Shown piece after piece: positions 9,678-12,671 of a stretch of DNA of 55,575 nt. A program made the position numbers and the translations under genes. Under the pieces are notes generated by a model. It was not told where the DNA came from, did not search any database, and saw only the letters and a list, made by a program, of their open reading frames with translations. Within the stretch, counting starts at the first letter, position 1, and every line of letters starts with the position of its first letter. The DNA comes from Desulfobacterales bacterium (GTDB lineage Bacteria; Desulfobacterota; Desulfobacteria; Desulfobacterales; UBA5616), in the NCBI GenBank assembly GCA_046483495.1, contig JAWODC010000061.1:1-55575 (forward strand). The letters are read 5' to 3'.

Positions 9678-9694
9678 TTTACCGAAAACGCGTG

Positions 9695-9727
9695 AAAAGG
9701 CGTCTGCTTATTCGGGCGCCTTTTTCT
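9695..9727 (+). terminator. intrinsic terminator-like hairpin after SDR
   Basis: AAAAGGCGTCTG-CTTATT-CGGGCGCCTTTTT. Confidence 0.6.
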
Positions 9728-10369
9728 ATGCGCTTTGAAGCCTTGAACGACATGGCGCTGACAGAAGACCCTAAAAGGCGGGATGCTTTTTACGAGTTTA
9801 TTCCCTGGAATACCGATGATCTATGGCGGGAGGTGAATCAATGCATGGCCTACACCGTGAAAATTCACCGCCGCAGTTTGCACCGTGCCGTCGAAACCGC
9901 CCGGAGTCTGTATTCCGACTTAAAATCGACGTATTCCGTAATGGACGAGCTCTGTGCCGACATCTGCCCCGAATGCCGCGAGCCCTGCTGCCGGGTGGCG
10001 AAATTATGGTTCGATTTTCGGGATTTGATTTTTCTGCATCTGAACAAGATCCCGATCCCCGATGCCCAACCGTTGGCGCATTATAACGACAGCTGCCGTT
10101 ATCTGGGTGCAGCGGGCTGTTTGCTGCCCCGTCAGGCCCGCCCCTGGATTTGCACGTACTACGTATGTCCCGCTCAAACAGCCCGTCTGCGAAAATTAAG
10201 CCGCACCCGGCTTCATGAGCTGAATGCGTTGCTGGAAAATATCAAGACGAGTCGAAAGAGGCTCGAAGACGAATATGTACAGGGTATTTTACCGTCGGCC
10301 CCGTCTCAGTCGAGTGAATGGAGAAAAATTGTCTTGCCGGCCCTTGAAAAGGACAGCCGGCTGTTTTAA
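9728..10369 (+). CDS. Cys-cluster protein, YkgJ/FliB-like putative Zn/Fe-chelating domain (start uncertain)
   Basis: CPECREPCC...CRYL...GCLL...RPWICTYYVC pattern. Confidence 0.65.
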   Translation: MRFEALNDMALTEDPKRRDAFYEFIPWNTDDLWREVNQCMAYTVKIHRRSLHRAVETARSLYSDLKSTYSVMDELCADICPECREPCCRVAKLWFDFRDLIFLHLNKIPIPDAQPLAHYNDSCRYLGAAGCLLPRQARPWICTYYVCPAQTARLRKLSRTRLHELNALLENIKTSRKRLEDEYVQGILPSAPSQSSEWRKIVLPALEKDSRLF

Positions 10370-10446
10370 TTTATGTAGATTGCCGCAAGATCGGACTATC
10401 CGGCGGATCATTCAGGTCATCGATTGGGATATTGGGATCAGCCGAC

Positions 10447-10475
10447 TTGACAGGGGGAATGTTCTATAGTAGAGG
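10447..10475 (+). promoter_or_regulatory. candidate sigma-70 promoter for leader/aroA'-pheA
   Basis: Perfect TTGACA at 10447-10452; -10 uncertain (TAGAGG at 17-nt spacing). Confidence 0.35.
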
Positions 10476-10483
10476 AAAACATC

Positions 10484-10573
10484 ATGTCACACTATTCGAT
10501 CATCATCCAGGCTGATTTTTTTGGGTTTTTTGGTTTTTTTACCGGGACCTGCGGCCTGGGATGCGTCGATTAG
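10484..10573 (+). CDS. Phe-rich attenuator leader peptide MSHYSIIIQADFFGFFGFFTGTCGLGCVD (29 aa)
   Basis: ATG 10484 after AGAGGA; six TTT codons at 10517-10540; TAG 10571-10573; upstream of a terminator and of aromatic biosynthesis genes including pheA. Confidence 0.85.
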   Translation: MSHYSIIIQADFFGFFGFFTGTCGLGCVD

Positions 10574-10626
10574 CACGATACACAATCTCAGAGGGCCGCG
10601 GGTCAGAGACCGGCGGCCCTTTTTTT
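10504..10626 (+). promoter_or_regulatory. ribosome-mediated transcription attenuator (1:2, 2:3, 3:4 helices)
   Basis: CATCCAGGCTG (10504-14) pairs with CGGCCTGGGATG (10552-63); GACCTGCGGCCT (10546-57) pairs with GGGCCGCGGGTC (10593-604); terminator at 10592-10626. Confidence 0.82.
10592..10626 (+). terminator. attenuator intrinsic terminator
   Basis: AGGGCCGC-G-GGTC-AGA-GACC-G-GCGGCCCT followed by a T run, about 55 nt before the ADH synthase ATG. Confidence 0.88.
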
Positions 10627-10681
10627 ATGTCTCGAATCCGGTCGCCGTGATCCGCCGAGTCCTGAAAAAAGGAGGGGGCTT

Positions 10682-11476
10682 ATGCAACTCGGGAAATCGA
10701 TCAGACTGGAGCGAATCTTAAACCGCAATACCCGGCGAACCATTATCGTACCGCTGGACCATGGCGTTTCGGTGGGTCCGATTTTCGGGCTCGTGGATCT
10801 CCGGGACACCGTGGACAAAGTTGCAGAGGGCGGTGCAAATGCCGTTCTCATGCATAAAGGGATTCCCCGGCGGTCTCACCGGCAAAAAGGAAGGGATATC
10901 GGATTGATTATCCACCTGTCCGCCAGCAGCGATCTTTCTCCGTTTCCGAATGCCAAAACGCTGGTAGGCAGTGTTGAGGATGCCCTCAGAATCGGAGCAG
11001 ATGCCGTTTCCGTTCACTTGAATCTCGGTGATGAAACGGAACGGTTTATGTTAAGTGAACTGGGCCGCATTTCCACAAGCGCCGACCACTGGGGCATGCC
11101 GCTGTTGGCCATGGTCTATGCCAGAGGGCGGAAAATTAAAAACGAATTCGATCCAAAGGTCGTAAAACACTGTGCACGGCTTGCCGAGGAGCTCGGCGCC
11201 GATGTCGTGAAAGTCCCATACACCGGGGATATCGATTCATTTAAGGAGGTGGTTGACGGTTGTGATATTCCCATCGTCATCGCAGGCGGCCCCAGGATGG
11301 GTAACATAACCGAAATTCTGCAGATGGCCCATGATGCCATCGAAGCAGGTGCGGCAGGCTTGTCCGTGGGACGGAACATATTTCAGGCGGATGATCCCAC
11401 CGCACTGGTCCGCGCCCTGCACGGCATTGTCCATGAAAACTGGAGCGTCGAGCAGGCCAAAACGGTGTCGACATAA
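10682..11476 (+). CDS. 2-amino-3,7-dideoxy-D-threo-hept-6-ulosonate (ADH) synthase, DhnA-type class I aldolase (AroA'-like)
   Basis: [34 protein letters not shown] and VIAGGP; RBS GGAGG; linked to pheA. Confidence 0.85.
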
Positions 11477-11549
11477 ACGGCAGAACGGCATACGCCGTTC
11501 AAGCGCTGTAACGCCTTTACGACAACATCAAACAGACCGGACGGATTGC

Positions 11550-12671
11550 ATGAGTGAAAAAAATGACCACAAAGAAAATACCGATATCGCGCGACGGCTT
11601 TCCGATATCAGGGCCCGGATCGATGACACCGACCGGCGGATACTCTACTACCTGAATCAACGGGCCACGCTGTGCAAGGAGGTGGGTAAAATTAAATCCG
11701 CAGCCAAGGATGCCGTTTTCAAACCCTCAAGGGAAAAAGAGATTCAGCAGCGGTTGGTCAGGGAAAACCCCGGCCCGCTTCCCGAGGACCACCTGCTGAC
11801 CATCTACCGCGAAATTCTCTCGTCATCACGGCGTCTGCAACGGCCCCAGGAGGTTGTTTATTTAGGCCCGGAAGGAACTTTTTCTTATTTGGCCGGTGTC
11901 GAATACCTTGGCCACAGCGCCGATTTCCGGCCTTGCAAAAATCTCGCAGAAGTTTTTCATGCCGTATCTTTCAAGGATGCGGAACTCGGTATTATTCCAC
12001 TGGAGAATTCACTGCAGGGCAGCGTAGGACAAAGTCTCGACCTGTTTTTAAAGTACCCCGTTTATGTACAGGCGGAAATATTCTGCAAAATCAGCCATTC
12101 GCTGCTGAGCAATGAGACCGTTTTGGCGTCGGTCAAGACGGTATACTCCCATCCACAAGCCCTGGAGCAGTGCGCCGGATGGCTGAGAACGCATCTTCCG
12201 GCAAGCCACCTGGTTCCCATGGAAAGTACTGCCGCCGCTGGAAAAATGGTCACCGACCACCCCGAGAGCGCCGCCATCGGCCATACCAAACTGGGTGAAA
12301 TGTTTGGGTTGAATGTGCTTTCCCGGAATATCGAGGATCTGCCGGATAATTGGACACGGTTTATGATCATCGGTCCCATGATGCAGTCCGGGGGAAACAA
12401 TGAAAAAACCTCCCTGCTGTTTACATTGCCGGACAAGTCGGGCGCCCTCGTCGGTGTACTGGCGCTTTTGGCGCAGGAGCACATCAATATGAAAAAGCTC
12501 GAATCCAGACCCTTGCGATCGGAAAAATGGCAGTACGTATTTTTTGCGGATGTAGAGTGTGACCTTACGCAGGAACGGTTTGCACCGCTGAGGCGGGAGC
12601 TGGCCGAAAAGTGCCACACTATTCGTATCCTGGGAAGTTATCCGTCCGGCCCCCACCTCGATGGATTATAA
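11550..12671 (+). CDS. pheA: bifunctional chorismate mutase/prephenate dehydratase
   Basis: AroQ-type IRARIDDTD...LNQRA; YLGPEGTFS, PLENS, SHPQALEQC, NWTRF and ACT-domain LESRP. Confidence 0.95.
   Translation: MSEKNDHKENTDIARRLSDIRARIDDTDRRILYYLNQRATLCKEVGKIKSAAKDAVFKPSREKEIQQRLVRENPGPLPEDHLLTIYREILSSSRRLQRPQEVVYLGPEGTFSYLAGVEYLGHSADFRPCKNLAEVFHAVSFKDAELGIIPLENSLQGSVGQSLDLFLKYPVYVQAEIFCKISHSLLSNETVLASVKTVYSHPQALEQCAGWLRTHLPASHLVPMESTAAAGKMVTDHPESAAIGHTKLGEMFGLNVLSRNIEDLPDNWTRFMIIGPMMQSGGNNEKTSLLFTLPDKSGALVGVLALLAQEHINMKKLESRPLRSEKWQYVFFADVECDLTQERFAPLRRELAEKCHTIRILGSYPSGPHLDGL

Follow-up and report, generated by a model that had tools for sequence, protein, structure and literature searches.

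The closest described relatives of the element analyzed here are the pheL-pheA leaders of Escherichia coli and other gammaproteobacteria, in which a short Phe-rich reading frame, alternative hairpins and an intrinsic terminator stand upstream of pheA. The attenuation mechanism itself is classical and belongs to the textbooks. The same ingredients occur in a 55,575-nt stretch of DNA from a Desulfobacterales bacterium (GenBank assembly GCA_046483495.1, contig JAWODC010000061.1; hereafter the window), where a Phe-rich leader precedes a gene for a DhnA-type ADH synthase (aroA′), the archaeal-type entry enzyme of aromatic biosynthesis, followed by pheA. We consider it very likely that this conserved leader is a ribosome-mediated transcription attenuator, which would read the charging of tRNA-Phe and control both genes.

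The leader passes the filter for pheL given in the excerpted text of PMC3082878 (at least five Phe in 60 nt, with a terminator and an antiterminator). Unlike E. coli pheL, it has no Rfam match, is probably leaderless, belongs to an RNA family that also occurs with mixed Phe/Tyr/Trp codon sets, and is followed by the ADH synthase gene first and pheA second. Because of this gene order, a search of the 200 nt 5′ of pheA would miss it. A single sentence in the excerpt of that 2010 paper states that Desulfobacterium autotrophicum potentially uses pheL. This putative leader comes from the same bacterial order, and our covariance model has hits immediately 5′ of pheA in two genomes of Desulfobacterales. 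However, the D. autotrophicum pheL lies directly before pheA and is presented in that excerpt without structure, family or test.

Two further systems resemble the leader in its predicted start: Sinorhizobium meliloti trpL (PMC7298713), whose frame lies at or near the transcript 5′ end and senses an amino acid via its codons, and the mycobacterial polycysteine small open reading frames (bioRxiv 10.1101/834739), which combine leaderless translation with codon-based amino-acid sensing. These act on other amino acids in other phyla, whereas the start proposed here is predicted from promoter spacing. The arrangement also recalls an entry step served by multiple isoenzymes, with several entry-enzyme copies of which one is Phe-linked, but here the copies are ADH synthases and amino-acid specificity apparently lies in the leader codons. 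In its TIGR01949 assignment, its catalytic Asp and Lys, and the presence of a dehydroquinate (DHQ) synthase II in the genome, the system resembles the MJ0400 (aroA′)/DHQ synthase II route of Methanocaldococcus jannaschii, from which it differs in having a bacterial host and its DHQ synthase II on another operon.

Since the basic mechanism is textbook knowledge, the surprise is limited; what appears to be new is the RNA family and its spread, its association with the ADH synthase route, a uORF that is probably leaderless, and the retuning of codons on shortened units. The abstract of Lopatovskaya 2010, which PMC4833913 cites, reportedly claims attenuators in delta-proteobacteria, with pheA among the genes. 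It is quite possible that these leaders have been predicted before, for example there or in Price 2011 (D. vulgaris transcripts), Merino 2008 or Bonner 2008. Save for the sentence in PMC3082878, our literature search found nothing on leader-peptide attenuation of Desulfobacterota aromatic genes or of the ADH synthase route. The initial annotation had suggested that such an attenuator might be undescribed for this pathway in Desulfobacterota, subject to a literature check; the novelty is lower than supposed given that the excerpted text already suggests a D. autotrophicum pheL.

Anatomy and Predicted Operation of the Leader

The upstream open reading frame (uORF) of the leader encodes MSHYSIIIQADFFGFFGFFTGTCGLGCVD followed by a stop, and its 29 codons include six for Phe, all TTT and all within a run of eight, 5′ of the ADH synthase-pheA pair (Table 1). 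In a genome-wide script scan, which returned 66 uORF-plus-terminator combinations before 2076 long ORFs, it was the sole uORF with at least five Phe in 10 codons. The all-UUU set is only mildly unusual, because UUU accounts for 51% of Phe codons in the long ORFs of the genome and outnumbers UUC by 114 to 33 in related leaders.

Folding yields three helices. Helix 1:2, with G10560 bulged, lies in an extended domain of −32.7 kcal/mol (z −4.3); helix 2:3 joins 10546-10557 to 10593-10604 by 12 standard pairs out of 12, in a region of −31.1 kcal/mol (z −3.5); and the terminator 3:4 occupies 10592-10620, with seven T residues at 10620-10626 (−27.1 kcal/mol, z −5.9). The fold of the whole leader has a z score of −4.87. 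Helix 2:3 shares bases with both of the others and thus excludes 1:2 as well as 3:4. Hence, the locus shows the hallmarks of a classical attenuator: end-product codons clustered in a short leader ORF, an intrinsic terminator between this ORF and the first gene, and an antiterminator that excludes the terminator. The initial annotation had proposed the 29-codon frame with its FFGFFGFF run and all three helices, including a mutually exclusive antiterminator of 12 bp, and these proposals hold up in the translation and the folds.

A simple promoter/terminator scanner, at its thresholds, picked up neither the terminator nor the promoter of the leader. An Rfam search of the leader returned no family at gathering score and 13 matches at E up to 10 (best E 0.93). 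Phe_leader, which represents enterobacterial pheL, is absent from these 13, and T-box and riboswitch models are likewise unmatched; the leader is not a member of Rfam Phe_leader.

The ribosome was modeled as a mask with an assumed footprint of 10-13 nt, and availability of 2:3 was computed on a transcript ending at 10606. When the A site holds Phe12, 13, 15 or 16, the probability of 2:3 is 0.94; it is 0.94 or 0.68 for Phe18 and 0.72 or 0.00 for Phe19 (10- and 13-nt footprints, respectively), and 0 for codons 20 to 29. Under this footprint, then, a stalled ribosome is predicted to leave segment 2 free and an advanced one to cover it, as in classical attenuators. Such masked folding had been put forward as a check in the initial annotation; its outcome is clear for Phe12-16 and marginal for Phe18-19, the last two sensing codons. 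Among the relatives described below, 16 of 18 pheA-type and 41 of 43 distinct whole-pathway leaders show a drop in predicted 2:3 availability that lies within 1-3 codons of the final aromatic codon counted. This geometry survey excluded three native Desulfobacterales rows in which the script chose a second hairpin, and three more had no called leader.

In the scheme we favor, RNA polymerase would start no more than a few bases from the leader ATG and the uORF would be translated without a Shine-Dalgarno sequence. When Phe is ample, the ribosome would pass codon 20 and cover segment 2, 3:4 would form, and transcription would end at 10626. When Phe is short, the ribosome would stall on Phe12-16, or less effectively on Phe18-19; segment 2 would then be free to pair with segment 3 ahead of the synthesis of segment 4, and polymerase would read through into the ADH synthase gene and pheA. 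We infer the start site, uORF translation, stalling and read-through from the sequence and its comparison with relatives.

Conservation, Predicted Sensing Codons and Predicted Promoter

In a first survey, 30 of 41 genomes matched the ADH synthase. Its six closest orthologues (70-89% identity) all have a Phe-rich uORF and the same terminator. A mixed aromatic leader precedes 16 of 18 loci at 54-62% identity (of the other two, one is incomplete and one, of a third type, has none), and no leader was found at any of five distant aldolases. GTDB genomes then supplied 396 loci; of the best 80 among them, 75 have a leader, four have none (L043, L057, L058 and L060, the script's pick at L060 being rejected by eye) and one is incomplete. 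When sorted by context, with the window and two further loci added, the leader is present at 18 of 22 ADH synthase-pheA units, where Phe-rich uORF, antiterminator and terminator are all kept, at 6 of 6 stand-alone ADH synthases, and at 52 of 53 Desulfovibrionia-type whole-pathway operons; at two loci the contig ends after the gene. Across 70-89% protein identity, the frame, its stop, the antiterminator pairing and the spacing are maintained while non-sensing residues vary freely.

Two of the leaderless ADH synthase-pheA units, L057 and L060, have a TTGACA about 90 nt 5′ of the gene with no leader or terminator seen, an apparent loss of the attenuator. One Desulfobacterales family (L132-L138) has, besides its usual pheA, a lone pheA of the Desulfovibrionia type, and no leader is seen in the 400 nt 5′ of the latter.

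Column-wise pair counts, which are inflated by kinship among the sequences, give 93.3% paired and 16 both-side changes for the terminator in 19 sequences, with none of 500 shuffles as good. For the antiterminator, 29 chosen sequences from both contexts have 89.9% of cells paired and 16 both-side changes versus 6.7 in shuffled alignments (0 of 500), and slid controls reach 35-44%. Sequence by sequence, the 2:3 duplex beats shuffles in every pheA-type (18/18), stand-alone (6/6) and whole-pathway leader (52/52) and in 4 of 11 of the order's usual trunk leaders; the corresponding figures for 1:2 are 9/18, 4/6 and 34/52. Conservation and covariation in relatives had been named in the initial annotation as a test, and the Phe codons, the uORF, 2:3 and 3:4 are conserved, but 1:2 does not rise above shuffles in the column test.

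The codon content of the leaders was compared within a sensing window of 14 codons, the placement of which relies on an assumed 12-nt footprint. Trp is found there in all 52 whole-pathway operons of the clade (43 distinct), and in none of 18 pheA-type and none of 6 stand-alone leaders; among the native trunk leaders, 8 of 11 have it. The mean Tyr count is 1.7 for pheA-type leaders, and the family of the window's uORF has 0-1. As read from these sequences, the sensing codon set shifts in the way that the genes 3′ of the leader would predict. Several ADH synthases that stand alone, with no aromatic gene 3′, have nearly pure Phe leaders (L037, L063, L071, L072, L074, L088, L160 and L170) and are candidates for Phe-responsive isoenzymes.

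Of the 78 leaders of this clade, 77 have a TTGACA that begins 32-40 nt 5′ of an in-frame leader ATG (the script took the nearest such ATG at least 30 nt downstream of TTGACA); by comparison, 371 of the 166,192 ATGs of the genome (0.22%) have TTGACA at that spacing. None of these 77 leaders has a Shine-Dalgarno-like word 3′ of the −10 position. At the usual sigma-70 spacing, the start site would fall at or just 5′ of the leader ATG. The uORF is therefore probably leaderless or nearly so, its start site being predicted from promoter spacing. The −10 region was not detected by a consensus scanner, and the GAGG within it would sit 5′ of the start site and hence have no Shine-Dalgarno role. No TTGACA lies within 41 nt of the leader ATG in any of 15 native leaders, and the distance is 60-94 nt in the other three leaders of the genome. 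Within the window, TTGACA-N26-34-ATG alone is not enriched (7 versus 4.7 expected).

Table 1. Positions in the window of the leader elements and the genes they precede
Feature	Position	Strand	Evidence and remarks
TTGACA, predicted sigma-70 −35 box	10447..10452	+	Sequence and relatives; 37 nt 5′ of uORF start; putative promoter
Predicted −10 region, TAGAGG	10470..10475	+	Weak match, 17-nt spacer; TA at spacer 17-18 in most relatives
Leader uORF	10484..10573	+	29 aa; probably leaderless or nearly so; kept in 18/22 ADH synthase-pheA loci
Segment 1	10504..10514	+	Fold; pairs with 10552-10563; column test no better than shuffles; significant per sequence in 9/18
Sensing codons FFGFFGFF (Phe12, 13, 15, 16, 18, 19)	10517..10540	+	Translation; masked folds
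Segment 2	10546..10563	+	10546-10557 pairs with segment 3; 10552-10563 pairs with segment 1
Segment 3 (terminator 5′ arm, antiterminator 3′ arm)	10592..10604	+	Fold, pair counts
Segment 4 and T7 tract of intrinsic terminator	10608..10626	+	Fold, pair counts
DhnA-type ADH synthase (aroA′)	10682..11476	+	TIGR01949 and PRK07226 over cut-off; AGGAGG at 10670-10675; one of three paralogues
pheA (chorismate mutase, prephenate dehydratase, ACT)	11550..12671	+	HMM (hidden Markov model) families; sole copy found in genome

Contrary Evidence and Other Explanations

Several observations weigh against attenuation by Phe-dependent stalling. In equilibrium folds of the full-length leader, the terminator is favored whatever the mask (P about 0.88 with the Phe codons masked), such that the decision to read through must be kinetic. 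The ribosome-free transcript to 10606-10612 favors 2:3 over 1:2, and these two preferences together mean that the behavior of the leader without translation is not predictable from folds. In the 19-sequence pheA set, 2:3 is 83.0% paired with only one pair showing a both-side change, and the column test of 1:2 gives 65.6% paired versus 65.0% in shuffles (201 of 500), without covariation support. Four of the 22 ADH synthase-pheA loci have no leader. Many pheA-type leaders retain Tyr, and a Phe-only set is true of the window's family rather than of all. Trp occurs outside the sensing window in 13 of 18 pheA-type peptides, in seven of them two codons past the last Phe, and the count of 0/18 inside it therefore depends on the assumed 12-nt footprint. 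Beyond the clade the Trp rule is loose, with one leader directly before pheA having Trp and four before DAHP synthase lacking it. Moreover, the pheA-type loci form one branch, and the codon change may therefore amount to one or two events.

Metatranscriptome contigs from four salt-lake runs cover parts of the locus with short, low-depth pieces, and contigs cannot show starts, ends or levels. One of them, at 10436-10582, has a depth of 23.9 versus 6-11 elsewhere in that run, which, in a contig, is not evidence.

The explanation that survives best beside attenuation, though we think it quite improbable, keeps the same anatomy and places control in the general translation rate or in slippage on the U runs (ribosomal frameshifting or slippage by polymerase), whereby a shifted ribosome would cross the terminator. 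Two U-UUU-UUU heptamers lie in the sensing region, neither alternative frame meets a stop before the end of the terminator, 13 of 18 pheA-type leaders have an open +1 frame, and Phe codons in the family lean to UUU. However, only 3 of these 18 have an open −1 frame, a heptamer is present in 8 of 18 pheA-type and 1 of 52 whole-pathway leaders, and an open +1 frame occurs in 29 of 52 whole-pathway and 2 of 6 stand-alone leaders. Open alternative frames and slippery heptamers are thus not conserved, which makes such control unlikely. Furthermore, the in-frame aromatic codons, including UUC, UAY and UGG, track gene content, and frameshifting in Salmonella pheL is described in the excerpt of PMC3082878 as having no effect on pheA regulation.

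Somewhat less credible still is that the terminator dampens transcription to a fixed extent, or serves to produce a small RNA or peptide that has a role of its own, and that the Phe-rich frame is a non-regulating relic of an ancestral whole-pathway leader. The equilibrium preference for the terminator and the four relatives that manage without a leader fit this proposal, as would the RNA contig of higher depth over the leader were it interpretable. Against it stand the constraint on frame, stop, antiterminator pairing and spacing beside freely varying non-sensing residues, and a codon set that moved as the downstream genes predict. We give hardly any credence to a protein, or a T-box or riboswitch, choosing between 2:3 and 3:4 in place of the ribosome, for which the only support found is that the uORF has no Shine-Dalgarno sequence once the promoter is counted, since Rfam offers no family at gathering score, an open frame with aromatic codons is conserved at a fixed distance from segment 2, and leaderless leader peptides are known from S. 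meliloti trpL (PMC7298713).

Genome Context, RNA Family and Possible Origin

The window is one contig (C82) of a 4.19-Mb genome that is 96.7% complete, and its closest named loci are labelled Desulfobacteraceae or Desulfobacterales. Its ADH synthase scores 392 bits against TIGR01949 (cut-off 299) and matches MJ0400 at E 4e-99, with Asp26 and Lys177 aligned to Asp33 and Lys184, residues of MJ0400 whose roles are given in the excerpt of PMC4162585. These family and domain matches agree with the initial annotation, which named a DhnA-type ADH synthase rather than DAHP synthase as the first gene and pheA as the second. We infer the substrates of the enzyme in this organism from its sequence. A reassignment of the Desulfovibrio DhnA-type enzyme was not borne out by term searches of PMC5764234 and PMC7311316, nor by PMC10102598. 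The ADH synthase gene and pheA are presumably co-transcribed across the 73-nt gap between them; this gap (11477-11549) folds at −17 kcal/mol and contains a hairpin that no T tract follows. Upstream of the leader, an ORF at 9692-10369 encodes a Cys-rich protein of 225 aa that matches nothing in Pfam or NCBIfam at E 0.001.

The genome, which is 96.7% complete, yielded no DAHP synthase, with no match to PF01474 and a single match to PF00793, which by our own reading of its sequence and neighbors, without an HMM, looks like KdsA. AroB is represented only by a below-cut-off fragment at a contig end (L151:1405-2050, C68), which is fused to unrelated-looking sequence and is possibly an assembly chimera. 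DHQ synthase II is encoded in the trunk operon on contig C63, together with another ADH synthase, aroA, aroC and a tyrA-like gene, and without pheA. The leader of this operon (L038:3082-3156) is a mixed Phe/Tyr/Trp peptide, MAYQTGRLYFYWYYFFRTGLPVVR, with a terminator, which is followed by a second hairpin and T run; most native aro leaders of Desulfobacterales likewise have hairpins in tandem, and so does the sequence 3′ of the trpE leader. The trpE leader (L038:8349-8447) lies 3′ of the trunk operon within the same aro-trp cluster, and has the run WWWCAW, its own TTGACA and tandem terminators. A gene that we read as ilvD-like (C69, about 93145, minus strand) is preceded by an Ile/Leu/Val-rich leader and a terminator.

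The third ADH synthase paralogue (L039:8293-9096, C74) lies directly 3′ of another gene and has no leader. It adjoins what we read as ectoine-like genes (acetyltransferase, aminotransferase and aspartate kinase), which use the same aspartate semialdehyde. Given three ADH synthase paralogues, one pheA, and a trunk operon without pheA, the window's unit reads as an extra, secondary, Phe-tuned copy of the entry enzyme joined to the Phe branch enzyme, a point absent from the initial annotation. Three leaders would then divide the work, the trunk operon coming under a mixed Phe/Tyr/Trp leader, trpE under a Trp leader, and the extra entry enzyme and pheA under a Phe leader.

At an E value of 0.01 or below, a covariance model of the leader has matches in 74 of 141 Desulfobacterales genomes, and it also matches the genome's own trunk leader (E 9e-5). 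All 24 matched loci that were inspected have an aromatic-rich uORF, which precedes ADH synthase at 14, canonical DAHP synthase at eight (L168, L172, L174, L175, L177, L180, L183 and L184) and pheA at two, with four of the eight DAHP synthases and one of the two pheA calls checked by HMM. These matches place the element in a wider RNA family of aromatic leaders in Desulfobacterota, which the initial annotation did not note, and the leader therefore appears to head the pathway whatever the entry enzyme.

The ADH synthase of the window shares 67-74% identity with Desulfovibrionia-type copies and 54-62% with those usual in the order, and for PheA the two ranges are 52-68% and 39-41%. Quick trees of both proteins separate the Desulfovibrionia type, including the window's genes, from the usual copies (SH-aLRT 95-100). 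Horizontal transfer from Desulfovibrionia is not thereby proven, as four approximately unbiased tests fail to reject grouping with the usual copies (p 0.17, 0.12, 0.09 and 0.18), and either transfer, whatever its donor and direction, or an old duplication may explain the separation.

Taken together, and tentatively, since we rate it slightly below even, Desulfobacterota may run aromatic biosynthesis by one re-tunable leader RNA family and not by TyrR/TrpR-type repressors. The leaderless Phe/Tyr/Trp attenuator of a Desulfovibrionia-type whole-pathway operon would have entered some Desulfobacterales with a shortened ADH synthase-pheA (or stand-alone ADH synthase) unit and shed Trp and most Tyr codons, giving a Phe-responsive isoenzyme of the archaeal-type entry step. 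If true, this would be the counterpart of E. coli AroG at the RNA level, and attenuator specificity would have changed in nature by codon swaps on a fixed scaffold. The occurrence of the leader before DAHP synthases implies that the leader family survives replacement of the entry enzyme. In tying attenuation to the ADH synthase/DHQ synthase II route, the leader would support, from the side of regulation, a role of the DhnA-type paralogues in aromatic synthesis. The proposed scheme thus offers a concrete, testable account of how sulfate reducers may control aromatic amino acid synthesis, with a natural series for studying how attenuator specificity is rewired as an operon is cut down, and with the mixed form carried by genetically tractable Desulfovibrionaceae.

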